Below are positions 1 through 51,092 of a stretch of DNA of 64,000 nt, piece by piece; positions within the stretch are counted from its first letter, which is position 1, and each line of letters opens with the position of its first letter. The stretch lies in contig JAGQMS010000002.1 in assembly GCA_020428535.1 (NCBI GenBank), positions 3,210 through 67,209 on the forward strand, written 5' to 3'. The position numbers were made by a program, and so were the translations under genes. The notes below the pieces were generated by a model. It was given only the letters and a program-made list of their open reading frames with translations. It did no database searches and was not told the origin of the DNA. This DNA is from Candidatus Saccharimonadota bacterium. Its GTDB lineage: Bacteria > Patescibacteriota > Saccharimonadia > Saccharimonadales > JAGQMS01.

Positions 1-2477
1 GCGTCAAGTTGGAGGTGCCGTGAATGCCACATTGTGTCGATGGCTTGCATAGTCTCGGCTTGGTCAAAGTTGTCGAAGTGAACAATTTGCTTTGATACCG
101 GCAATACAGAAGTCTTTCGCTCACTGCCCTCGCCAAATTCGAGTAAATATTTAACTGGTTCGGTCTTCTTGCCATTGTCCTTATGAGCATGGCTGGTTAG
201 GTAGAGCCCGTGTTTTGCGCGGGTGATGGCTACAAAAAGTAGTCGTCGAAGTTCGTCTTCGTCACTGCCACGGTAGCGGATGTATTGTAGGTTTGCGGGG
301 AGTGTAAGCTTGTTTGAGTAGCCTCGAGCAGATTTGCCCCAAACGTCGTCGTGCACAGAGAGCAAGAAAACATGCTCAAACTCGAGGCCTTTGGCTTTGT
401 AGGTAGTCATTAAGTTCACTGAATCTTCGGCAAGCGCGATTGGATGAGTGTTGATCAGTGGCTGTTCGGCAGCTTCGTAGGTATTAATAAAATGCAAAAA
501 GTCTTGTGGCTTGAGCAGAGTTTCTTGACCGGCCTGCCAGGCTCTAAGATGCTCACGGATAGTAGAAAGATTTGCCAGGCCTTCGTAGTACTGTAGAGTG
601 TTAGTGCTTTCAGCAAAGTAGAAGTTTCTGAATGGACTTTGGTAGGTGTTTTCAGAATCTATTGCCAGCGGGATAGTGCCCGTGAGGTAGTCGAGAATAT
701 ATTCGAGAGGTTCACTCGAGGTTTTCATGCCGAGGGCAAGATAGAACTGTATGTGCGGAGTGAGATCTGAATTTTCAAGAGCTAGTTCTGCCCAAGACAG
801 CTCATTTTGACGGTAATGTTGCCAGTTGATCTGCCAAATAGTTTTTACAGGCAACTGATAGAAGTCAAAAGACAGTACCCGCGGAAATAGCTGGTCCATC
901 AATTGCTGGTCATTATCAGAACATGCGATGACTAGCTCTATCATTGCCCTGAACATTCGAACCAACGGAGTTTCGAGAATATTTTCGCGCTTTTCGTATG
1001 AAACAGGAGTATTATTGTGAGCCAGAAACGGAACCAGATTTTCTAGATATTTGTGCTGAGGTGCTAAAACAGCAATTTCGTGAGGTTTTGTACCATTTTT
1101 TATAAGTTCTTTAATTTTGCTAGCAACCCAAGAGTATTCATTGGCTTCAGCGTCGAATTCGTGTCGCTCGATTGATGCGTCGCTTGGCAGGTCTTTTTTA
1201 CTAGCGACTAGGTTTTTGTCGATGCCTTCCATGTCGTGATGGAGGCGCGACTCTATCTGGCCAGCGATGCCGTGGGCGGTGTGCAAAATATCCGGGTGAG
1301 ATCGGTAGTTCTCGGTAAGGTTGATAACTTTTACGTCTCTGAAAACATGCCTAAACTCAGACATATTGCTGACGCTCGCTCCCTGGAAGGCATAGATTGC
1401 TTGATCATCGTCACCAACAGCAAAAATATTCGGCTGGCCTTCATTGACCGGGTTGTCGCATAGCTTTTTAACTAGCTCAAATTGAGCTGGGTTTGTGTCT
1501 TGGAACTCGTCGAGCAGTATGAATTGATACTTTTCTTGAAGAGTGAAGCGCAGATCGTCGTTTTTGTTCAGTGCATCGATGGTGCGGAGGATCATGTCGT
1601 CAAAATCGTAGAGATGCTTTTCTTCCAAGGCTTGATTATAGCGTTCGAATACTTTGGCGAGCTCTGCCATGCGAAGATGTTGGTCTTCGCTGGTTAGCAC
1701 AAAGTGGTCGTGGTCGTCTTTGGTTAGCCAAGTGTTCTTCCATTCGGTTAGGGGCGATGATTTGCCTGACTCAGACGCTTTTTCAATGGCTTTTTCTAGA
1801 GCTTCTGAGGCGGTTTTGGCCAGGCCGTCATCGCCATCCAGAAAATCAAGAAGAGGTTCAAAAAGTTCAATTGATTGGTCGGCTTTCGATGGAAAACGTT
1901 TTACACCTGCAAGGTGATCGGCAATTTTTGGGCTGAGAGTTTGGACTTGACGGAGGTTGTTTTTAGCTAGCTCTTCAAGGCTTTGGGGGGTGAAAAGACT
2001 TCGTTTTAGGTCGCTGATGGTGCTGGAGATGTCTTTGACGTAGTACTTGGCGCCAATGAGTTGGCTGGAATACGGCAATCTGCTGATGATCTCTGTGATG
2101 ATTTCTAGGCGCTGAAGTTCATCAATTGGTCGTTCAAGACGAGTGTCCTTGCCGGTTTCGAGATCGATTTCTTCAAAATACTGTGGGTATGTGCGGATTA
2201 TGTCACTCCCAAAGCTGTGGTAGGTCGAAATGTGCACATCGTAAGCGTCGTCTTTGATGATCTGCGCCAGACGTTCGCGCATGTTTTGAGCTGCGTTTTC
2301 GGTGAAAGTTAGACAGAGGATATTTTGGGGGCTAGCATCAGTGACGGTTAAAATTTTGGCGATTCGAGAGCTGAGAAGTTGAGTCTTACCCGTGCCGGGG
2401 CCCGCCAAGACTAAAAGCGGGCCGTAGATATAGTCGACTGCCTCTTGTTGCTTGGCGTTGAGTTTAATTTCTCCCAT
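1..2477 (-). CDS. UvrD/PcrA-type superfamily-1 ATP-dependent DNA helicase; the 3' end runs off the window
   Basis: Reading the reverse strand from ATG (cat 2475-2477) gives MGEIKLNAKQQEAVDY..LVLAGPGTGKT (Walker A). It continues with DEFQDTN, VGDDDQAIYAFQGA, NYRS, TYKAKGLEFEHVFL and VAITRAK helicase motifs. The frame stays open to position 1, which is why it is absent from the ORF track. Confidence 0.85.
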   Translation of the reverse strand, partial: MGEIKLNAKQQEAVDYIYGPLLVLAGPGTGKTQLLSSRIAKILTVTDASPQNILCLTFTENAAQNMRERLAQIIKDDAYDVHISTYHSFGSDIIRTYPQYFEEIDLETGKDTRLERPIDELQRLEIITEIISRLPYSSQLIGAKYYVKDISSTISDLKRSLFTPQSLEELAKNNLRQVQTLSPKIADHLAGVKRFPSKADQSIELFEPLLDFLDGDDGLAKTASEALEKAIEKASESGKSSPLTEWKNTWLTKDDHDHFVLTSEDQHLRMAELAKVFERYNQALEEKHLYDFDDMILRTIDALNKNDDLRFTLQEKYQFILLDEFQDTNPAQFELVKKLCDNPVNEGQPNIFAVGDDDQAIYAFQGASVSNMSEFRHVFRDVKVINLTENYRSHPDILHTAHGIAGQIESRLHHDMEGIDKNLVASKKDLPSDASIERHEFDAEANEYSWVASKIKELIKNGTKPHEIAVLAPQHKYLENLVPFLAHNNTPVSYEKRENILETPLVRMFRAMIELVIACSDNDQQLMDQLFPRVLSFDFYQLPVKTIWQINWQHYRQNELSWAELALENSDLTPHIQFYLALGMKTSSEPLEYILDYLTGTIPLAIDSENTYQSPFRNFYFAESTNTLQYYEGLANLSTIREHLRAWQAGQETLLKPQDFLHFINTYEAAEQPLINTHPIALAEDSVNLMTTYKAKGLEFEHVFLLSVHDDVWGKSARGYSNKLTLPANLQYIRYRGSDEDELRRLLFVAITRAKHGLYLTSHAHKDNGKKTEPVKYLLEFGEGSERKTSVLPVSKQIVHFDNFDQAETMQAIDTMWHSRHLQLD

Positions 2478-15661: not shown

Positions 15662-15708
15662 TGATAACAAGTATAAAGGAGAAAGTTTAAAGTAGTAAGT
15701 TTAAATTA

Positions 15709-15968
15709 CCCTACATCTTAGGCTGAAAGTTCAGCCGAACATGTAGGGTGGCAGACTGGTCGGGTCATGCGCACCCTGAGACCTCATCCCTTACGGAGGT
15801 AAGCACGCAGCTTATATTTCCTGAAAGGGTTGAAGCTGGTTCTGGTGAACCACACGCGAACCGGTCCTACGTTCCTCAATCTCCGCTTCTCATTGACGGC
15901 GGAAATAGCATCATCTAGGGCTTCACGGCTCTCATACCATCTTTCCATCAAAGACCCCCAAGTCTGCC
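15709..15968 (-). ncRNA. unclassified GC-rich structured RNA candidate (219-nt helix-closed domain plus 3' hairpin)
   Basis: The 342-nt gap between the DHH gene and cysS has no credible ORF and is visibly GC-richer than its flanks. On the minus strand, GGCAGACU (15968-15961) pairs with AGUCUGCC (15757-15750) and closes a 219-nt domain with several internal hairpins. A long interrupted hairpin at 15748-15709 (CCCUACAU...AUGUAGGG) follows immediately. The family is not identified. Confidence 0.45.
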
Positions 15969-16012
15969 GCCGAGTCGTCTCTCAACGCCCGGATATTATG
16001 ACTATATACTCA

Positions 16013-41727: not shown

Positions 41728-41803
41728 AGGGGAGTAGCTCAATTGGTAGAGTAGCGGTCTCCAAAACCGTTGGTTGCAGGTTCGAGTCCTGTCTCCCCTG
41801 CCA
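41728..41803 (+). tRNA. tRNA-Trp (anticodon CCA), CCA encoded
   Basis: Acceptor AGGGGAG/CTCCCCT, anticodon stem GCGGT/ACCGT with loop CTCCAAA, T arm GCAGG-TTCGAGT-CCTGT, discriminator G then CCA. Confidence 0.92.
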
Positions 41804-41805
41804 CG

Positions 41806-41837
41806 AAAAGTCCCGGTCAGTTTGTCCGGGCTTTTTT
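41806..41837 (+). terminator. terminator hairpin after tRNA-Trp
   Basis: AAAGTCCCGG ... CCGGGCTTTTTT. The A-run and T-run on either side make it potentially bidirectional. Confidence 0.7.
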
Positions 41838-41973
41838 CGTGGCCATGTGATTCAGGCTCAACTTAAAACCAACGGAGTTGGTTGGAGGTGAGAAAAGCCA
41901 GCGGCTTTTCGCAAGGGAGTCCACTCTTGAAGCTGTGCTTCAAAGATGTGGCGACGGGGTCGCGGAACGTGAC

Positions 41974-41994
41974 CGAGTCCTGTCTCCCCTGCCA
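41974..41994 (+). repeat. exact 21-nt duplicate of the tRNA-Trp 3' end, with its own terminator hairpin
   Basis: CGAGTCCTGTCTCCCCTGCCA is identical to 41783-41803. It is followed by hairpin GCCTGAGT..ACTCAGGT plus a T run at about 42004-42030. Confidence 0.85.
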
Positions 41995-42081
41995 AACTAA
42001 AATGCCTGAGTTTTGCACTCAGGTGTTTTAGTTTGATAAGTGATTCGACTCGGTTCTGCAACTCGCCAAGAAGTGGCGAAA

Positions 42082-42187
42082 GTTGCAGGTTCGGTCTTGA
42101 GTCTAGTGCCCGAGTATACTCGGCGCACTGATTCAAGTGCTCTGTCCCCCGCCTACCTTGCTTGGCGGGCAGGTGTCTCCCCTACCA
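42082..42187 (+). repeat. degenerate third tRNA-Trp 3'-half remnant
   Basis: GTTGCAGGTTCG (42082-42093) matches the tRNA T-arm. TGTCTCCCCTACCA (42174-42187) matches the tRNA 3' end at 13 of 14 positions. It is followed by a hairpin with a T run (AGTCCC..GGGCTTTT). Confidence 0.6.
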
Positions 42188-42249
42188 AGCATAAGAATAT
42201 GATAAAAAGAGTCCCATTGCGGGCTTTTATATTGCTAATGTAATAGCTA

Positions 42250-43053
42250 TCATTTCGTTCGAATGTAGATCAATGTAATAGCTGCCGCTAAGATCATTAA
42301 TAAAAATATTGAAATGGATTCTGATAGCCTAACTATAAATGGCGTTATTTTGTGTACTTTTACGAATTTTGTTTCGTTAATTACCAAGCTACCATTTGTC
42401 TCGGGCAGACTGATATTTTTTGCAAAATCATATATGAGAGTCAATGTTTCAGGGTCTCTTTTATCTCCACCGATTAATAGCCATACTCCTCCACTTCCCA
42501 CTTCAATGTCTATATATAGTTTTTTTTCCGTAAGCTGCTTCGCTAGTTGAAGCGCATACTCATGAGACCCCTGGGAGTAGTATATATCCGTACTTTCTTG
42601 CGATGCTCTGGTTAAATTACCTGAGACATACTGTGCTGCAAAATTTTTCGGAAAACTTATAAGGAAGTTAAGATTTGTAGCTTTAGGTAAAAACAATACC
42701 GTTGCCTGCCTTCTTGTAGCTCCTTGACGGACATTTCCGGCTGAAAAGGGAGACTTTTTTTCGTATCTAACTAAGCCGAGTAGTGTATTATCGTCTAAGC
42801 CAATAATCGTACTCGTTCGAAAATTGATTATCCGACTACTATTTTTCAGCTGTGAAAGCGATTGCGGTAGCCGCCATTTTGATTTCAATTGCTGAGTGTC
42901 ACACTCTAAACCATTGTCTCTAATAAATTGTGCCCAAGACGAATCAAAGTCCGCAGTAGATAACCCATGACCGTCGTTTCTGAGACTGTTTTGATAGAAT
43001 ACCGCCTTATTGTTGTAAGGTTTCTTACCATTTATGGCTGAAGTATTAAGCAT
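42250..43053 (-). CDS. hypothetical protein with a C-terminal TM anchor
   Basis: 267-aa ORF with no recognisable motif. Confidence 0.45.
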   Translation of the reverse strand: MLNTSAINGKKPYNNKAVFYQNSLRNDGHGLSTADFDSSWAQFIRDNGLECDTQQLKSKWRLPQSLSQLKNSSRIINFRTSTIIGLDDNTLLGLVRYEKKSPFSAGNVRQGATRRQATVLFLPKATNLNFLISFPKNFAAQYVSGNLTRASQESTDIYYSQGSHEYALQLAKQLTEKKLYIDIEVGSGGVWLLIGGDKRDPETLTLIYDFAKNISLPETNGSLVINETKFVKVHKITPFIVRLSESISIFLLMILAAAITLIYIRTK

Positions 43054-43224
43054 ATAGTAATAATAATAAAATTCTTGATTTTGTCTATGTCGAGTTATGT
43101 ATACGAATTACTAGACGAAGTTTCTACTTCAACATATTTTCTCTGAGAAGTTCGTCCATAAAGGGTTGCCGAGCATAAGCATTATGAAAGAGCCAGTCCT
43201 GGCTCTTTTTGTTATTATCTAGTT

Positions 43225-43743
43225 ATGAAGATATTGGAAGGGTATGAAAGATTTATAGAAAATGTGAATAATGGCTTGAAAAGAGTCGGAATTTCAGCGC
43301 ATGAATTGGCTATGATGGATCATATCTGTTATCGCGTAGCTACTGGAGAGAGATACAAACAGATACTCGCAGATCTTGGTGGAGCTACTCTATTGGGTGA
43401 AGCTATTATTTCGGGAAGACCAATTGCTACTATAGAGCTTGAAGAACCTCTTGAAGCAGGAGGATGGAGAGTTCCTTATTTAGAGCTTCCTTCCCCAAAA
43501 CAATCCAGTCCGTACCCTGAAGGACTTGAACATGTTGAATTTGTTGTGATCGGTGGACTAGATAGGTTTGCAGCGCGGCATTCAGATTTAGATTTTGATC
43601 GTGGCGGTATGGGTAAGGATTTGAATCCAGAACTTGGGTTGAAAGATGGTGATCTGTCAGTCAAGTTTCATGAGCAACCCTTAGGTGCGGTTGTTCGAAT
43701 TGAACATCGTTTGGGTCGGACCTTACCTCAGCCTCAACGTTGA
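43225..43743 (+). CDS. VOC-superfamily (YecM-like) protein
   Basis: DHICYRVATGERYKQ and GLEHVEFVV resemble the YecM/VOC metal-site strands. This is motif-level evidence only. Confidence 0.45.
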   Translation: MKILEGYERFIENVNNGLKRVGISAHELAMMDHICYRVATGERYKQILADLGGATLLGEAIISGRPIATIELEEPLEAGGWRVPYLELPSPKQSSPYPEGLEHVEFVVIGGLDRFAARHSDLDFDRGGMGKDLNPELGLKDGDLSVKFHEQPLGAVVRIEHRLGRTLPQPQR

Positions 43744-43811
43744 GAAGTTCATTGATGAGGGGCTGACTTGTATTGGAACTTTGTAATCACAAACCATATA
43801 ATGGGATATAT

Positions 43812-44027
43812 ATGTCAAAAATGGACAGCGACGGTAGAAGCGGAATTTATCAAATTGTTGGCAGGCCCGATATTGACCTGACGAGCTATCTTGTTATTGT
43901 GAACGGTAGAAGTATTATCGATTACGATAGAATCAAGGTCGAAAACCCTAGTCTCTACCATGAAATATTGGAGTTAGAAGATGAAGCAAACGAGCAAGAA
44001 GACCTCTACCTGGAAAGCCTAGAGTAA
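43812..44027 (+). CDS. small acidic hypothetical protein
   Basis: Inner ATG has TATAAT 9 nt upstream. 71 aa with an acidic C-terminus. Confidence 0.35.
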   Translation: MSKMDSDGRSGIYQIVGRPDIDLTSYLVIVNGRSIIDYDRIKVENPSLYHEILELEDEANEQEDLYLESLE

Positions 44028-44110
44028 AACCGATCAACGATTCTATTTACCTCCAAACGCTTTCACACTAATAAAGATCAAATGCTAAGTTAATTTGCTA
44101 TTATTTATTA

Positions 44111-44779
44111 ATGCTGAGCAATGAATTCTACTCAAATGAAGATTCGAAAACTGATACTTTAGCATGTCTAGTCGCTGGTTTTGGAGGGAGATTAAAATCC
44201 TATCAAAAAGCCATTCAGGCACTTTTAAATGCTGGCTATGATGTAATAGCATTCGAGTACGACCGTAACGTGTTAGATAGTGGCAATCCCGATGATCTAC
44301 TAAATTTAGTGGAGTCTATTACAAAAGAAGTTGAAGGCAGAGCGAGTTCTTATGAACGTGTTGTTTGCTGTGGTGTTAGTTTGGGGGCTTACATATCATT
44401 TAATGTTCAAAGGCGAATAGACAATGCTAAAACGGGTATTTATGGGACAGCAGGGATATCCGTGTCGCATGCAATATACACAGCAAAGATTTTCAGAAAA
44501 GTAAGATCTAAGTTCGTCGGTAACGGCTACGATGAAGCTTCCCTTAGAAAAAAGTGGGAGTCGATTGAGATATTGGATGATGCGGGCATAGACAGTACAA
44601 AATCTCTAAAGATTGTAATGGGCAAAATGGACAAGATCGTGCGCTATCGCTCTGCCAGTAGAGTAATGGATGGCTGGAAAGACAACGGGACCAAGGTGAG
44701 TTATTTTGGGCTGAATGGACGTGGGCACACACTCACAATCAGCTGGTATAAAAACAATCTGTCAAAACTACTGATCTAA
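44111..44779 (+). CDS. alpha/beta-fold hydrolase-like protein
   Basis: Nucleophile elbow CCGVSLGAY and a C-terminal GRGHT. Length is 222 aa. Confidence 0.5.
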   Translation: MLSNEFYSNEDSKTDTLACLVAGFGGRLKSYQKAIQALLNAGYDVIAFEYDRNVLDSGNPDDLLNLVESITKEVEGRASSYERVVCCGVSLGAYISFNVQRRIDNAKTGIYGTAGISVSHAIYTAKIFRKVRSKFVGNGYDEASLRKKWESIEILDDAGIDSTKSLKIVMGKMDKIVRYRSASRVMDGWKDNGTKVSYFGLNGRGHTLTISWYKNNLSKLLI

Positions 44780-44878
44780 CCTATTCTCCAGCGTTTTATG
44801 ATCTAACATCGACATTTTAAACCTTACTTGATTAACATCATGAATAGTCGTATATTTTACTTAGACCGTAATGGTTAA

Positions 44879-45133
44879 GGGAGTGACGAAACCACTCGGC
44901 TTAAAATGCACTGGAGAGTTTGCCGTCGCTAAATGGATACTCGAAGAAGGTGCGCCGGGCTGGGAGGGCTCATCCTGTCGTTGGATTGAATACCGAAAGC
45001 TGGAAACAGCTTGATGGAAAAAAGACGGAACAAACGTTCCGACCAGCGATTCAAGGAAGACCCGGGTAAACCTAACCCCCGACCGTGCGTAAGTTGCTCG
45101 GTCGGGGGAAGGTCCCTATAAGTTCGCACTCCC
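44879..45133 (+). ncRNA. unclassified GC-rich structured RNA candidate (~255 nt, strand uncertain)
   Basis: Lies between the 3' ends of convergent genes and is visibly GC-rich. The termini pair: GGGAGTG(A)CGAA with TTCGCACTCCC. Internal hairpins are CCCCCGACCG-13nt-CGGTCGGGGG, CGGAAC-AAAC-GTTCCG and AGCTG-GAAA-CAGCT. The only ORF here (66 aa, minus strand) looks like noise. Confidence 0.5.
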
Positions 45134-45164
45134 TATTTTCATTTGAAATTTATTTTAGCGGTTC

Positions 45165-45977
45165 TTATTTGTGAGTATTGGGGTTTATTACTTGACCGGG
45201 TGTATATGTTGGATTTGGATTCGGGATATTTGTGAACAGTGAAGTTGTCGGTGGCGAATAGTCTAGGTATGTATAATTATTCATTTTTCCCTTTAAGAAA
45301 TTTTTGGAATTGTACCTTCGAACACCGAAGATAATACCAGCGACTGTAGTTACGACTATCAGTATCGCTCCTGCTAAATAGTATGGTGTTTTAAATATTT
45401 TCTTAGTGCTATCAGCGATAGGTGTTGCTACCTTTTCTTTTACAAAAGACACTGTTTTGCCTATGGCATTTGTAGGCTTTGTTGAACTAGCGGACTGCTG
45501 AGTTGTACCCCCGCTTGCCGAAGAAGTACCTGCAGTAGTTGCTGTGTCTGCAACTTGAGTGTTGGCGCAACTAGTCGAATCGGTAGGAGCAAATAAGGAA
45601 TTTGATGATAGCACGATACAATCTAGATCAACATTGGCTTTGGTAGCAGATATTTGAATATCAATGGTGCCGCCCGTGGTTGTAAAAATGTTTTGTGAGT
45701 TGGCCCATTTCCAATTTGTAGCATCAGTAGTCGAGATTTGTTGATTACAAGCTGTTCCGCCTCCAGAAAGATTGAATTTTAGGTCTGGCGACCCATCTGC
45801 ATTCTTTACTCTAACCCACAGAGAATGGGTGCCTGCTTGTACGTCACTAAGTTGATAGTTTGATATTCCGTAGCCAGTTGATAGATCCGGGCATGTACTT
45901 TGCGCATTCGTAGCTATTGGCGTGAAAACCATTAAAACTAGTATCGAGGTCAGCAAAATCGAAAACTTTTTCATCAT
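45165..45977 (-). CDS. secreted, C-terminally anchored protein with a carbohydrate-binding-module-like domain
   Basis: Signal peptide MMKKFSILLTSILVLMVFTPIATNAQS, a beta-rich domain, a Ser/Thr/Ala linker and a C-terminal TM helix. Its ATG overlaps the upstream stop (ATGA). Confidence 0.5.
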   Translation of the reverse strand: MMKKFSILLTSILVLMVFTPIATNAQSTCPDLSTGYGISNYQLSDVQAGTHSLWVRVKNADGSPDLKFNLSGGGTACNQQISTTDATNWKWANSQNIFTTTGGTIDIQISATKANVDLDCIVLSSNSLFAPTDSTSCANTQVADTATTAGTSSASGGTTQQSASSTKPTNAIGKTVSFVKEKVATPIADSTKKIFKTPYYLAGAILIVVTTVAGIIFGVRRYNSKNFLKGKMNNYTYLDYSPPTTSLFTNIPNPNPTYTPGQVINPNTHK

Positions 45978-47254
45978 GGTGTCCCCGCACAACTACTTGG
46001 TGATGAATAGCATACCGTATCACTTCCCCAACTATTGCCTGTTCTTGTAGTTGAGCCAATAGTACCGCTAAATACGTAAAGATTTCCGTCTATAGATGAT
46101 TTTGGCCAACCCGCCTGAGCAGTAAATACATTGTCGGTAAAAATGATAGATTGAATGCCACTAGTTTGGCCGTAAAAGCGCACTGGGTAATAACCGCCAC
46201 CTGATATCTGATTATGTTTGACGATATAGACTTTGTCTGGGTTTGAATCTTCGTCTGCATAGACTGCGATTGCTCCAGTCCCACCGAATTCATAACAGCC
46301 TGAACCTGGCCCGTTCGACCATCCTGCACTACAAAGTTCCCATCTGTTGGCAATGATTGTGTTGTCTTCGATATTGACGGTGCCGTTATTTCCAGTGAAG
46401 TATATTCCGTTTGCATGACCCAGATGTGGTGGAGATGCATATGGGGTGTCGTCGTAGTCGTATATATAATTTCTGTAGATAGTTGTTGTTGTGCCTGAGT
46501 CTAGATCTCCAGCAGATTCTACGACGTGTGATGCGCCTCTAACTTGCGAATATTGAAGAGTAAATTGACCGTGTCGAGCCGTTAGACCGTATTCGTGTCT
46601 GTTACCGCCGTCGATGTAACAATGATCAAAAGTGATGTTTTTAGGGCGAATGCTTGAATCCCAAGCTTTACCGATGAATATAAAACCATTTGGCGAATGG
46701 CTTGTGCCAGTGTATACGATCCTACAATTCTTAAAAGTTATATTGTTACCAGTTATATAAAATTCCTGACCGTTGCCTACCAATATCTCCACATTTTCGA
46801 ACGTTTTACCGCTATCTGAGGTGCCGAATTCTCTTGGAGATAAACTTGTGAAAGTTGTACCTGCAGTCGGGCCAGTGTTTTGCAATGTAGCCGGCCATGT
46901 CCAGGTTGTGGACCCGCTGCTTCCGCCTGAGCTACCACTGCCAGGATCCGGTGTTGTGCCTCCTCCCCCGCTAGAACCACCACTTGCTGGTGGAGGAGTG
47001 CTGACCGCAGCGCTATTGAAACTTAAATATTTACCTCCCGATGCGTTCTCATCTGTGTATGTAGTCGTGTTTGATTCACTAAGATAATTCTCGGCTTCTG
47101 TCCCTTTCGTGCCTGAATCATTTACTGCGAATGATCGCACGAATAATAGGTTTCCACCCAAAAGAGTCAATATGAAAAACAATAGAAATATTTTGCTTTC
47201 AAAAATATCATCAAATCTAAAGTTTTTTATATAAAGTTTTATTTTTGCCCCCAA
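45974..47254 (-). CDS. secreted right-handed beta-helix (pectate-lyase-fold) protein
   Basis: N-terminal TM/signal segment, a Gly/Ser-rich linker, and repeats such as NITFKNCRIVYTG, ITFDHCYIDGG and VNIEDNTIIAN. The only in-frame start near the N-terminus is the TTG at 47254. Confidence 0.55.
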   Translation of the reverse strand: MGAKIKLYIKNFRFDDIFESKIFLLFFILTLLGGNLLFVRSFAVNDSGTKGTEAENYLSESNTTTYTDENASGGKYLSFNSAAVSTPPPASGGSSGGGGTTPDPGSGSSGGSSGSTTWTWPATLQNTGPTAGTTFTSLSPREFGTSDSGKTFENVEILVGNGQEFYITGNNITFKNCRIVYTGTSHSPNGFIFIGKAWDSSIRPKNITFDHCYIDGGNRHEYGLTARHGQFTLQYSQVRGASHVVESAGDLDSGTTTTIYRNYIYDYDDTPYASPPHLGHANGIYFTGNNGTVNIEDNTIIANRWELCSAGWSNGPGSGCYEFGGTGAIAVYADEDSNPDKVYIVKHNQISGGGYYPVRFYGQTSGIQSIIFTDNVFTAQAGWPKSSIDGNLYVFSGTIGSTTRTGNSWGSDTVCYSSPSSCAGTP

Positions 47255-47335
47255 AGAGTGTTTGTTAAATAACGCTTAGGTTTATTTAATGTTCTTTAGC
47301 TTAAAATGTCAATAGTTTCAAGGGGTGATAAATTT

Positions 47336-47599
47336 TTAATTTTTCGATAGTTTTTTACTAAATATCATTACTAGAATTCCAACAATACCTATCAAAGCTC
47401 CTAGCACATACTCTATTCCCCGCGATCTACCGCTTATGGATAGCCCGATCATAACAGTTGCCGGAATTGCGCCAAGTGTTAGCAGTAACCCAAAAATAAA
47501 TACAAAGATTTTATTTCTACGGATTATAGTTTTATAGGTTACCAGTATCAGTACTGCAATAATTGACAACACCAGCAGATCATCAAGATAATCTTTCAT
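47336..47599 (-). CDS. small membrane protein
   Basis: 87 aa with three hydrophobic helices. Confidence 0.45.
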   Translation of the reverse strand: MKDYLDDLLVLSIIAVLILVTYKTIIRRNKIFVFIFGLLLTLGAIPATVMIGLSISGRSRGIEYVLGALIGIVGILVMIFSKKLSKN

Positions 47600-47619
47600 A
47601 GGCTTATGTTAGCACTAAT

Positions 47620-48189
47620 CTAGATTTTACCGACTAGTTTTACGCCCGGTTTGAGAGTCTTTTCGCCTGGTTCCCAGTTAGCTGGGCAGACATTGCCGCC
47701 ATGTTCACGCACGAATTGTGCGGCTTTTAATTTTCGAACCATTTCTTTAGCACTTCGGCCGATATCATTATTATGAATTTCAATAGTTTTCAAAAATCCA
47801 TCAGGATCGATAATGAAAGTACCCCTGAGTGAGAGCCCTTCATCTTCGATGTATGTACCGAACATTCTGCAAACTTTGCCAGTTGGGTCGGCGAGCATTG
47901 GGTAGTTGATCTTGGAAATTGAATCGGATGTGTCGTGCCAAGCTTTATGTGAAAAAGCGGTATCGGTACTGACGCTCATGATCTCGCCATTTAGTTTATT
48001 CACTTCTTCGTGAAAATTCGCAGCATCCACTAGTTCTGTTGGGCAAACAAATGTAAAGTCTGCAGGGTAAAAAACCAACACAACCCACTTGCCCTTGTAG
48101 TCTGACAAACTAATTTTGGTTAGGTCGTCTTTGTAGTATGCCTCAAGCGTAAAGTCTGGAACCTGAGCATTAATCTGAACTTGATCCAT
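47620..48189 (-). CDS. typical 2-Cys peroxiredoxin (AhpC/Prx1 type)
   Basis: FYPADFTFVCPTE peroxidatic Cys motif and a C-terminal resolving VCPANW. Confidence 0.88.
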   Translation of the reverse strand: MDQVQINAQVPDFTLEAYYKDDLTKISLSDYKGKWVVLVFYPADFTFVCPTELVDAANFHEEVNKLNGEIMSVSTDTAFSHKAWHDTSDSISKINYPMLADPTGKVCRMFGTYIEDEGLSLRGTFIIDPDGFLKTIEIHNNDIGRSAKEMVRKLKAAQFVREHGGNVCPANWEPGEKTLKPGVKLVGKI

Positions 48190-48206
48190 TTTTTGATCTC
48201 CTTAAA

Positions 48207-48698
48207 TTATTTCTTAACTTTCAATTCGGGGTGCACAAAACGACGATAACCCAAGTAGGCGACAGTTATTAAGCCAACTGTAATTGTAACAAATATATAC
48301 TTACTGTTTTCAGAAATGATGCTCCGAATTATGCTGTACATCAAGGTAAATAGACCACCCATCATCAAACCATCAGCAAGTATTTTGATCTTTGAAACGT
48401 ATATCAGACTTAATGAAATCAAGGCGATTGCAGACAAAAGTACAATTATTGAAACATTTCGGCTGTACGGTTTTAGAGATTCATTGTAAGCAATCTGTTC
48501 TTCATTGTAGGCTTTTTCGGCTGCAATTTGTTCTTCTGATGGTGCTTTATCGCCATATATTGCCATAGTTGAAGATGGATATTCAGGAGCTTTAGGCCCC
48601 TCATAGAATGTGTTAACTCCAAAACCGACGAACATTGCTAAAAGTAGCCCTAAGAAAAACGTATACACGAATTTGAGTAACTTGTTCTCTTCCTTCAT
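48207..48698 (-). CDS. membrane protein, unknown function
   Basis: 163 aa with four hydrophobic helices. Confidence 0.45.
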   Translation of the reverse strand: MKEENKLLKFVYTFFLGLLLAMFVGFGVNTFYEGPKAPEYPSSTMAIYGDKAPSEEQIAAEKAYNEEQIAYNESLKPYSRNVSIIVLLSAIALISLSLIYVSKIKILADGLMMGGLFTLMYSIIRSIISENSKYIFVTITVGLITVAYLGYRRFVHPELKVKK

Positions 48699-48741
48699 CT
48701 CGCCCCCTTATAATGAAATTATACGCTTTAAAATGAAGATT

Positions 48742-50754
48742 CTAAATAATTCCATCACGCTTCAACATTGCTTCTGGTTTTGGTGCTCGGTGTAAAAATT
48801 CTTTGACAAGAATATCCGGTTCTACTTCGTCGCCTCGTGAAAGAACCGAATTCTTAAAATCTTCACCTGTCTTCTCATTGAAAACGCCTTCGCTTTCAAA
48901 CCTTGAGAATAGATCTGCCTGCAGTGAGTCTGACCACTTATATGTGTAATAACCGGAGGCATAGCCATCAGTGATGTGGGCAAATGTTGCTAAGATTGCA
49001 AAGTACGGCATCGGTTTTACCGGTAGGTATTTCTCTCGTAAGTTAAAGGCGAAATCTGACATTTCCTTTACGTTTTTAAGCTCGAGCCCTGAATGCAATA
49101 GCAAATCAAGATATGCAAAGTAGAGTTGTCTCATGGTTTTGATACCGATGTTAAACAGCGACATGTTCTTAATTGCTCTGACTGTATTTTTAGCAAGAGG
49201 CTTGCCCGTTTTGTAGTGTTTGGCGTATTTCGGGAGTACGTCATCATGAAGTACCCAGTTTTCCATAATTTGTGAAGGGGCTTCGATAAAATCACGTTTT
49301 ACATGATTCATCCCCTGCTCTTTTAGCCTAGTATTGCTAAGAGCAAAATGTATAAAGTGGCCAAATTCGTGCCACATTGTTTCGACTGAATTAATGGGCA
49401 TGAGTGCTGGCAATTTTGCCGTAGCCGGTGATATGTTCATGATTACGCAACCAATATGAGGTTTCTCGACGCCGATAGATCTATCAGCATTTACGAACTC
49501 ATTCATCCAGGCATGACCGTGTTTATCTTTTCTCGAAAACCAGTCGCAGTGCACCTCTGCAAGTTGCTTTTTCGAACTGTCAAAGATAGCGTATACCTGG
49601 ACATCTTTGTGCCATGATTTCTTTTGAAGTCTTCGAAAATTAATGCCATACAGTTTCGAGAACGATTCGAGCATGAAACTAAGGCATCTACTGAATTCAA
49701 AGTATTCCTTTGTATCGTCTAGGTTTATTTTGAATTTATTTTCAAAATATTTCGCAGGGTAGAACATATCAATACCGCTGTCGAATTCAAATTGTTCGAG
49801 GTTTTTAATAGCAGGGTCGTAGTTCTTACAGACAAAATTTAGTAGTTCTTGATATTCAATCTTAGCTTTGTGGCTGTATTTTTCTAGTAGTGGTTCAATG
49901 AAATCTAGTGCTTTCTGCGGTGTATTGAGCATCCTTTCGCGCATAAGCATCGCTCCGGGGTTTTCAAACCCAAGGATGTCTGCTTGTTTTTGCCTGATTG
50001 TCAACAGCTCAAACATTATCTTATTATTTTTGTTAGTCACGCATGCAGAGTAAGCTCTGTGGAATTTCTTTCTTGTAGCTGAAATGCTACAAGTTGTCAT
50101 AATATGGTCAAAGTTGCCATCATCGTTTGAAATAAGGAAGCCCTCGACACCCGCTTTAGCCGCAGCTTCTCTGTAAGATTCCACAATGTCATTTCTGACG
50201 CCTTTGAGTTGAGAAATATTGCGTACGATAATTGGGTTATTGTCTCTAGCAAGCAGTATGTTGCTTCTGAATTGCGTACTTAGTTTAGCGCTACGTTTTG
50301 AAAGTTTTTTCAGTTCTATTTGCTTGTCTTTGGGTAGATGAATGCCGTTCGCTTGGTAGTTTTTAATTAATTTATCGAGAAGTCGAAGCTCTAACTTATC
50401 AACTACCTTGCCATCATCTTGAAGAATTTTTAGTTGAAGATAAATCTTTTGATCAAACTCTACTTCTAGGCCAAATGAAACATATTTCTTTATCGCATAG
50501 TCGCGTGCTTCTTGCCATACGCTTGTTTTCATAGACTCTAAGTGCGAAATTACTCCCGTCACAAACTCAAGCTTTTCATCTGAGCGCGTTAGACCAAGTA
50601 CCGTATTCTCGAATGTTGGTTTTTTAATCTTCTTTAGTTTAGCTATATTGGCTTTTGCTTCTTTGAGGGCCAAGTCTACCGCTTCCTTGGCGTCACTAGG
50701 TTTGTATTTATCAAAATGGACTTGGTCAATTGTGTGAAGAAAAGTATTTGTCAT
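48742..50754 (-). CDS. M3-family oligopeptidase (thimet oligopeptidase / Dcp-like)
   Basis: HEFGH zinc motif (MWHEFGHFIH) with a downstream FIEAPSQIMENW glutamate region. ATG at 50754; the track start at 50778 is a TTG. Confidence 0.8.
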   Translation of the reverse strand: MTNTFLHTIDQVHFDKYKPSDAKEAVDLALKEAKANIAKLKKIKKPTFENTVLGLTRSDEKLEFVTGVISHLESMKTSVWQEARDYAIKKYVSFGLEVEFDQKIYLQLKILQDDGKVVDKLELRLLDKLIKNYQANGIHLPKDKQIELKKLSKRSAKLSTQFRSNILLARDNNPIIVRNISQLKGVRNDIVESYREAAAKAGVEGFLISNDDGNFDHIMTTCSISATRKKFHRAYSACVTNKNNKIMFELLTIRQKQADILGFENPGAMLMRERMLNTPQKALDFIEPLLEKYSHKAKIEYQELLNFVCKNYDPAIKNLEQFEFDSGIDMFYPAKYFENKFKINLDDTKEYFEFSRCLSFMLESFSKLYGINFRRLQKKSWHKDVQVYAIFDSSKKQLAEVHCDWFSRKDKHGHAWMNEFVNADRSIGVEKPHIGCVIMNISPATAKLPALMPINSVETMWHEFGHFIHFALSNTRLKEQGMNHVKRDFIEAPSQIMENWVLHDDVLPKYAKHYKTGKPLAKNTVRAIKNMSLFNIGIKTMRQLYFAYLDLLLHSGLELKNVKEMSDFAFNLREKYLPVKPMPYFAILATFAHITDGYASGYYTYKWSDSLQADLFSRFESEGVFNEKTGEDFKNSVLSRGDEVEPDILVKEFLHRAPKPEAMLKRDGII

Positions 50755-51092
50755 GAATACTATTGTATTACCAAGCAATCTAAATCTATAGAGATTTGAG
50801 TATTGCTAGCACAGGCAAAAAGGTTATATACTCATCTTAGCCTGTGTGAGGGCTTTGGGATTTTTGAAATTCTGATTCCTCCTCACAAGACTTCTTTTAC
50901 CAGTCACGAGCCACTAGTCGCTAGTCTCGAGATGAATCACATTTTTCGTTGGCAGTGTGTGCGTAAACTGACCACCCTATTGATCGATACTCTTTTTCGA
51001 ATTTTTAACAATACCCAAGAACGACAAAGCCCCCGGATGACCGAGAGCTCTGCCGTGTGGCGGCTCAACCGACTCCTAGGGGGGGGCTAACC

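Follow-up and report, generated by a model that had tools for sequence, protein, structure and literature searches.

Structured element between convergent genes

We analysed a 64,000-nucleotide (nt) stretch of DNA from a Candidatus Saccharimonadota bacterium (contig JAGQMS010000002.1, positions 3,210 to 67,209; hereafter the window) and, within it, a 255-nt element that lies between two convergent genes and is predicted to fold into a branched RNA on the plus strand. The genome (G000) comprises 783 kilobases (kb) on 42 contigs and is 87% complete, with a G+C content of 42% versus 54% for the element. Upstream lies an alpha/beta-hydrolase gene, and downstream are two surface-protein genes with products of 275 and 426 amino acids (aa), the longer of which contains a beta-helix domain (Table 1). 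The element occupies the whole gap between the hydrolase and 275-aa open reading frames (ORFs). G000 contains one copy of it, and its assembly on at least four contigs indicates that it is real DNA. An earlier note on this locus, made from the letters of the sequence, had singled out a GC-rich stretch of about 255 nt between convergent genes, and both its composition and its setting are borne out.

The element is far more stable than expected from its composition. Its plus strand has a minimum free energy (MFE) of -114.7 kcal/mol, compared with -79.4 +/- 5.0 for 200 dinucleotide-preserving shuffles (z = -7.07), none of which folded as well; for calibration, the RNase P RNA (rnpB) of the same genome reaches only z = -1.1 in the same test. 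The MFE structure by itself makes up 8% of the ensemble, with a mean pair probability of 0.97 over its 86 pairs, and the fold is the same with 17 to 100 nt of flanking sequence added. The minus strand folds to -92.1 kcal/mol (z = -3.9), which is 22.6 kcal/mol worse, and this asymmetry is due to seven G-U pairs in the plus-strand fold. In a G+C-corrected scan of the 64 kb in 255-nt segments, the element ranked third in plus-strand structuredness, behind tRNA-Trp-linked repeats at 41.8-42.2 kb and an inverted repeat near 5.3 kb.

In the MFE fold, the two ends of the element pair in a helix of 11 base pairs (bp), P1, which closes a four-way junction from which three arms (A, B and C) emanate. Arm A is an interrupted hairpin, arm B a long stem leading to a three-way junction with two hairpins and arm C a G+C-rich hairpin on a short stem. 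The earlier note had proposed the terminal pairing of about 11 bp, the 10-bp hairpin now placed in arm C, the GAAA-tetraloop hairpin and the CGGAAC-AAAC-GUUCCG hairpin, and all four recur at the same coordinates in the predicted structure.

Two internal loops may represent tertiary motifs, as judged by reading the sequence against published examples. The loop in arm A fits the kink-turn consensus over 44908-44919/44939-44953, a fit that we estimate would arise by chance in one such loop roughly 1 time in 256, and is thus a candidate kink-turn. The internal loop of arm C may be receptor-like, resembling the 11-nt receptor for GAAA tetraloops, a tetraloop of which type caps one of the hairpins of arm B.

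Table 1. Predicted features of the element and annotated features of its surroundings. Coordinates are those of the window; RNA positions are converted to window coordinates by adding 44878.
Feature	Window position	RNA position	Strand	Basis or remark
Core of structured RNA	44879-45133		+	86 pairs, four-way junction closed by P1; MFE fold, shuffle test
P1, 5' strand GGGAGUG-A-CGAA	44879-44890	1-7 and 9-12	+	Pairs with 3' strand
P1, 3' strand UUCG-CACUCCC (UUCGCACUCCC)	45123-45133	249-255 and 245-248	+	Pairs with 5' strand
Arm A, interrupted hairpin with kink-turn-like internal loop	44892-44963	14-85	+	z = -1.65 (plus), +0.75 (minus)
Kink-turn-like loop GGA/GAAGAA, C stem	44916-44919/44939-44942	38-41/61-64	+	Sequence compared with published consensus
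Kink-turn-like loop, 3-nt bulge GAA	44943-44945	G65 A66 A67	+	Sequence reading
Kink-turn-like loop, proposed sheared pairs	G44946-A44915, A44947-G44914, then A44948-G44913	G68-A37, A69-G36, A70-G35	+	Sequence reading
Kink-turn-like loop, NC stem	44908-44912/44949-44953	30-34/71-75	+	Sequence reading
Arm B, long stem leading to three-way junction with two hairpins	44966-45063	88-185	+	z = -5.83 (plus), -2.32 (minus)
Arm B hairpin AAGCUG-GAAA-CAGCUU	44997-45012		+	GNRA tetraloop at 45003-45006 (RNA 125-128)
Arm B hairpin CGGAAC-AAAC-GUUCCG	45026-45041		+	AAAC loop
Arm C, 10-bp G+C hairpin on short stem	45064-45116	186-238	+	z about -5.5 on both strands
Arm C, strands of 10-bp hairpin, CCCCCGACCG/CGGUCGGGGG	45076-45085/45099-45108		+	MFE fold
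Arm C, internal loop CCUAAC/GAAGG	45071-45076/45108-45112		+	Resembles 11-nt GAAA-tetraloop receptor CCUAAG/UAUGG
Sigma-70-like promoter candidate TTGATT, 17-nt spacer, TATATT	44828-44856		+	Predicted start near 44863-44865, about 15 nt before P1
U-rich tail UAUUUUCAUUU	45134-45144		+	Possible 3' end or termination tract, directly 3' of P1; sequence reading
Intrinsic-terminator-like CGGAAC-GUUU-GUUCCG, then UCUUUUUUCC (U6 tract)	45041-45016		-	Inside element; 1 site versus 0.6 expected by chance
47-codon ATG ORF	44871-45014		+	Over P1, arm A and half of arm B; called as gene on 4 contigs; judged unlikely
66-codon GTG ORF	44929-45129		-	Judged non-coding
tRNA-Trp	41728-41803			
Stretches ending in copy of tRNA-Trp 3' end	41883-41981, 42085-42147			Multi-copy in family
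Alpha/beta-hydrolase gene	44111-44779		+	Upstream neighbour
Surface-protein gene, 275 aa	45165-45992		-	Downstream neighbour
Surface-protein gene, 426 aa	45974-47254		-	Beta-helix domain
M3-peptidase gene	48742-50778			Far side of 7-kb island
Second candidate RNA	15700-15975		-	GC-rich, closed by a helix

Searches for relatives and interpretation as a non-coding RNA

We compared the window with Rfam 15 (4,227 families). At gathering thresholds, the whole window yielded two tRNAs only, and when the threshold was relaxed to E<=10 for 601 nt and 266 nt around the element, only noise was obtained (snoRNA, miRNA and lncRNA models at 9-15 bits).

Homologues were sought by blastn (60 relatives, 400 genomes of the order and 400 of the phylum) and with R1, a covariance model derived from this one sequence together with its MFE structure. 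Across these genomes, blastn returned only chance matches of 17-33 nt, which R1 rejected; a 35-nt match in one genome (G342) is likewise at chance level. R1 itself recovered nothing from the 60 relatives, five other genomes of the family (searched with lax filters) or 150 genomes of the order, and with filters switched off it detected no second copy anywhere in the window. Coverage of metagenomic (JGI) and GTDB loci comprised those carrying homologues of the neighbouring genes: R1 found nothing at loci with hydrolase homologues (63%, 47% and 42% identity; JGI contigs and GTDB genomes) or with beta-helix homologues, and short-word blastn against all retrieved loci gave only noise. Lastly, phage and plasmid collections contained no match to the RNA, two 19-mers were unmatched in IMG/VR and the flanking surface-protein genes had no relatives in that database.

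Two types of mobile or retroelement-associated sequence were also considered and rejected. Inverted repeats are present at the termini in the form of P1, but the element is not a miniature inverted-repeat transposable element or other mobile element, being a single copy that was not found in relatives and lacking a flanking direct repeat or target-site duplication. A retron or the template of a diversity-generating retroelement was rejected because the genome has no second copy or stretch resembling a variable repeat and the neighbouring genes have no Pfam domain of reverse-transcriptase type, although no whole-genome search for reverse transcriptases was made.

We interpret the element as a stand-alone, lineage-restricted structured non-coding RNA that forms a new and so far single-member class, an interpretation that could as easily prove wrong as right. 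Given that it rests on the thermodynamics and strand asymmetry of one sequence, we consider the element a well-supported candidate and not an established class. A plus-strand gene of this kind would have a core of about 255 nt within a primary transcript of about 280 nt, starting from its own promoter (TTGATT-17-TATATT) and probably ending at the U-rich tract after P1. P1 would lock the 5' and 3' ends together and close the four-way junction with its three arms, while the molecule might be packed into a globular form by a kink-turn in arm A and by the GAAA tetraloop of arm B docking on the receptor-like loop of arm C. Such an RNA would presumably act through its shape, either as a scaffold that binds a protein or ligand or as a ribozyme, and not by base pairing in the manner of a small RNA; it would be confined to this species or to a very narrow lineage. 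Comparably large and complex RNAs have mostly proved to be riboswitches, ribozymes or ribonucleoprotein scaffolds. The tiny genomes of Saccharibacteria and other members of the candidate phyla radiation (CPR) can accommodate little DNA that is not essential; to our knowledge, almost nothing has been established about the non-coding RNAs of these bacteria.

Several observations weigh against this interpretation. No homologue of the RNA was found in any collection searched, and there is consequently no covariation and no sign of purifying selection. The near-perfect hairpin of arm C folds equally well on either strand, arm A taken alone is not significant (z = -1.65) and G000 has other GC-rich patches. 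The 800-nt region contains 2 promoter-like sites where shuffles lead one to expect 1.7, and no canonical plus-strand terminator was found around the element. No L7Ae-family kink-turn-binding protein was found in G000, so that any kink-turn would need tertiary contacts to fold, as in riboswitches. Furthermore, the island that contains the element is mosaic and horizontally exchanged, a setting in which inserted DNA could plausibly lack a function.

If the RNA is expressed, it would constitute a new structured class outside all Rfam families, and its position suggests that RNAs of this type may travel as cargo on DNA exchanged between episymbionts. Among the closest parallels are large or 'ornate' orphan RNAs of bacteria, namely the raiA motif, ROOL, GOLLD and OLE (RF03072, RF03087, RF01998 and RF01071), which likewise came to light as GC-rich, ORF-poor, structured intergenic islands, in their case in AT-rich genomes. 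In contrast to the single sequence described here, these classes have many covarying members; none of their models matches the element, and ROOL, GOLLD and OLE are all larger.

Position in an exchanged tRNA-Trp island

The element belongs to an island next to the tRNA-Trp gene. In three genomes of the family (G002, G003 and G005), tRNA-Trp is separated by 200-600 bp from the homologue of an M3-peptidase gene, whereas in G000 the distance is 7 kb (41800-48740) and the orientation of the tRNA with respect to the peptidase gene is reversed. The intervening DNA encodes a 267-aa ORF, YecM, an 84-aa ORF, the hydrolase, the RNA, the two surface proteins, an 87-aa ORF, AhpC and a 163-aa ORF, and tRNA-Trp itself is followed by two more copies of its own 3' end. 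On the strength of the 7-kb insertion, these tRNA-Trp 3'-end copies and the patchy distribution of the hydrolase and beta-helix genes across families, we regard the island as mosaic and horizontally exchanged.

The copies of the tRNA-Trp 3' end each terminate a stretch of about 100 nt that is repeated in genomes of the family (84-90% identity), with four locations in G001 and further occurrences in G002, G004 and G005; no Rfam model matches it. The stretch resembles a tRNA-linked repeat element rather than a set of one-off integration scars. The most strongly folded part of the window, 41.8-42.2 kb, coincides with this region (-120 kcal/mol per 255 nt), and several highly structured GC-rich loci elsewhere in G000 also adjoin tRNA genes.

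The hydrolase and beta-helix genes both have relatives outside the family. The C-terminal 309 residues of the beta-helix protein are 93% identical to the product of a gene in another family (G318, contig C88), and homologues about 62% identical occur in three further families, giving four other families in all; within its own family, the gene was not found in any of the other five genomes. Such a distribution points strongly to recent horizontal exchange. For the 275-aa partner, identity is a mere 35%. In G318, another gene directly follows the pair, with no RNA. The hydrolase is encoded in identical form on 28 contigs, and its closest homologue (63% identity) is on a JGI metagenomic contig (Ga0163144_10048501). 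There, an insert of about 620 bp with a 110-codon ORF occupies the same 3' flank and is bracketed by a direct repeat of about 55 bp (1470-1525 and 2143-2198) that covers the 3' end of the hydrolase gene. The repeat looks like an att-type duplication left by a small integrated element, at the same position as the RNA in the window. Standing at the seam of two exchanged modules, the RNA was probably acquired, or arose, recently.

The same setting would also suit a relic, in which foreign or decayed DNA at the junction of two acquired modules retains a fold that is inherited or incidental. Several points are in its favour: the 7 kb of additional DNA relative to three family genomes, a beta-helix neighbour with a near-identical counterpart in another family, a best hydrolase relative in which another insert, bordered by repeats, takes up the same 3' flank, and the failure to find the RNA in any relative searched. 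However, 86 pairs at a mean probability of 0.97, a z score of -7 and G-U pairs specific to the plus strand would not be expected of a decaying or random insert, and searches of phages, plasmids, IMG/VR and 800 Patescibacteria genomes revealed no donor. We therefore consider a relic unlikely, though it is to be taken seriously.

Transcription signals and a possible role in cis

The element could instead serve its neighbours as an oversized, structured 3' untranslated region that stabilises the hydrolase messenger RNA on the plus strand, terminates the surface-protein operon on the minus strand and insulates the two units from each other; in a variant, it would gate antisense read-through into the 275-aa gene. 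This idea accords with the lack of any terminator between the hydrolase stop codon (44779) and the element, with the way the element takes up the entire gap between the convergent genes and with the signals found there, namely the U-rich tract after P1 and the minus-strand hairpin with its U6 tract. At the latter, transcription of the 426-aa/275-aa operon could stop within the element. Nevertheless, G000 ends other genes with simple terminators composed of an A-tract, hairpin and T-tract (after tRNA-Trp and rnpB, for example), a 255-nt four-way junction goes far beyond what termination needs, and the minus-strand terminator is at chance level. Moreover, the closest homologues of the hydrolase and beta-helix genes have no similar feature downstream. 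A role in cis appears about as improbable as a relic.

A possible aptamer or ribozyme

A more specific proposal is that the element is the founding member of a new compact RNA class that combines a four-way junction, a kink-turn and a tetraloop-receptor contact, and that functions as a ligand aptamer or ribozyme on DNA exchanged among Saccharibacteria. In one version, formation of P1 would decide between a stop at the U-tract and antisense read-through into the convergent 275-aa/beta-helix operon, an arrangement that by analogy would resemble the riboswitch-controlled antisense RNAs of Listeria and Enterococcus. The proposal as a whole is, in our view, quite improbable.

The architecture of SAM-I riboswitches, with a kink-turn and a four-way junction, has been described in published structures. 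The element recalls SAM-I (RF00162) and other junction-type aptamers with a kink-turn in its P1-closed four-way junction, its kink-turn-like loop in the first arm, plausible GNRA-type tertiary contacts and a size in the range of large aptamers, the likeness being one of architecture only. By contrast, it is about twice the size of SAM-I, matches no riboswitch family in sequence or covariance model, and has no downstream gene on the same strand and no identified expression platform. A riboswitch of a known Rfam class was rejected on the basis that no aptamer matched at E<=10, and a 5' leader was rejected on the basis that the next 5 kb downstream hold minus-strand genes only.

Coding potential

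Two short ORFs overlap the element, raising the possibility of a small-protein gene, of 47 codons on the plus strand or 66 codons on the minus strand, carried on a GC-rich, folded messenger RNA. The former has some appeal, given that its ATG closely follows the predicted start of transcription and that gene callers annotated it on four contigs. Among 5.8 billion proteins, however, it matched only itself, no Shine-Dalgarno sequence precedes it, and the fold extends 120 nt beyond its stop codon. The region of its start pairs with the far 3' end of the element in P1, and the start codon region would consequently be buried. For the 66-codon ORF, no Pfam match and no usable ribosome-binding site were found, and a search of 1.84 billion representative proteins returned a single spurious match to a 1,244-aa repeat protein, which consisted of nine weak (28% identity) alignments to a low-complexity unit. 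Since the search did not return the ORF itself, it has never been called as a gene by any pipeline. Neither ORF thus has a Shine-Dalgarno sequence, a Pfam match or a homologue; the element appears non-coding by every test run on its sequence, and a small-protein gene is very unlikely.

Housekeeping RNAs

The earlier note had left a choice between a strongly reduced housekeeping RNA and a new RNA class. The first would be a reduced or divergent RNase P, signal recognition particle (SRP), 6S or transfer-messenger RNA (tmRNA), and two circumstances speak for it: no SRP, 6S or tmRNA gene was detected in the 87%-complete genome, and two strings in the element, GAAGAAGGUGCGCCGGGCU and AGACCCGGGUAAACC, loosely recall conserved regions I and V (CR-I and CR-V) of RNase P RNA. 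These strings are literally present, as the note had said, but they receive no statistical support as RNase P elements from Rfam even at E<=10. Similarity to type A bacterial RNase P RNA (RF00010) otherwise extends to a high G+C content, a length of a few hundred nt and paired termini. In contrast, the element falls 100 nt short of any bacterial type A RNA, and its parts occur in an unfitting order, a discrepancy that the note had itself recognised; neither RF00010 nor RF00011 matches, and a full-length type A RNA is encoded on another contig (C2:6256-6613, 187 bits), complete with GGAGGAAAGUCCGGGC (CR-I) and ACAGAACCCGGCUUAC (CR-V). The element is therefore not the RNase P RNA of this genome.

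The SRP RNA was rejected in a similar manner: no model of the SRP clan matched at E<=10, and the stem of the GAAA hairpin is fully paired, with no internal loop. Of 31 genomes of the order, among them single-contig ones that are 99-100% complete, none yielded a match to SRP RNA (RF00169 and RF01854) or to the M domain of Ffh (PF02978). No SRP54-type GTPase domain (PF00448) scored over the cut-off in G000 and four near-complete relatives, just 2 of 151 genomes of the phylum had matches to it, and tblastn into G000 gave matches at the level of the P-loop only. As the SRP proteins, with their Ffh/FtsY domains, were not found in this lineage, no SRP RNA is expected there either; in agreement with this, many CPR bacteria lack both SRP subunits (PMC8080830).

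Neither of the remaining candidates fits. A tmRNA was rejected given the lack of a tRNA-like domain, T-arm, CCA end and G3-U70 pair (the terminal helix has G3-C) and a negative ARAGORN result; ARAGORN found no tmRNA in the region or the genome, and the matches to RF00023 in G000 were below the cut-off and tRNA-sized. The 6S RNA (RF00013), which was not detected in G000 (87% complete), had no match to the element, whose branched four-way junction does not resemble the rod of 6S RNA. Relatives would, in addition, be expected to share a housekeeping RNA, and the element was found in none of them. With rnpB elsewhere in the genome, SRP proteins not found in the lineage and no model match for any of the four RNAs, this explanation can practically be discarded, which leaves as a firm negative that the element is no reduced RNase P, SRP, 6S or tmRNA; the other half of the earlier proposal, a new class, stands as the best reading.

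Other structured loci in the genome

A second GC-rich candidate RNA, also closed by a helix, lies on the minus strand of the window (Table 1). It folds to -107.7 kcal/mol (z = -4.58), has no Rfam match and is dissimilar to the element. Elsewhere in G000, further GC-rich 255-nt segments at C6:3486, C37:9351, C39:1021, C11:45221 and C1:4250-4760 (about 70% G+C) equal or exceed the element in GC-corrected folding; some of these may be rRNA, tRNA clusters or additional orphan RNAs.

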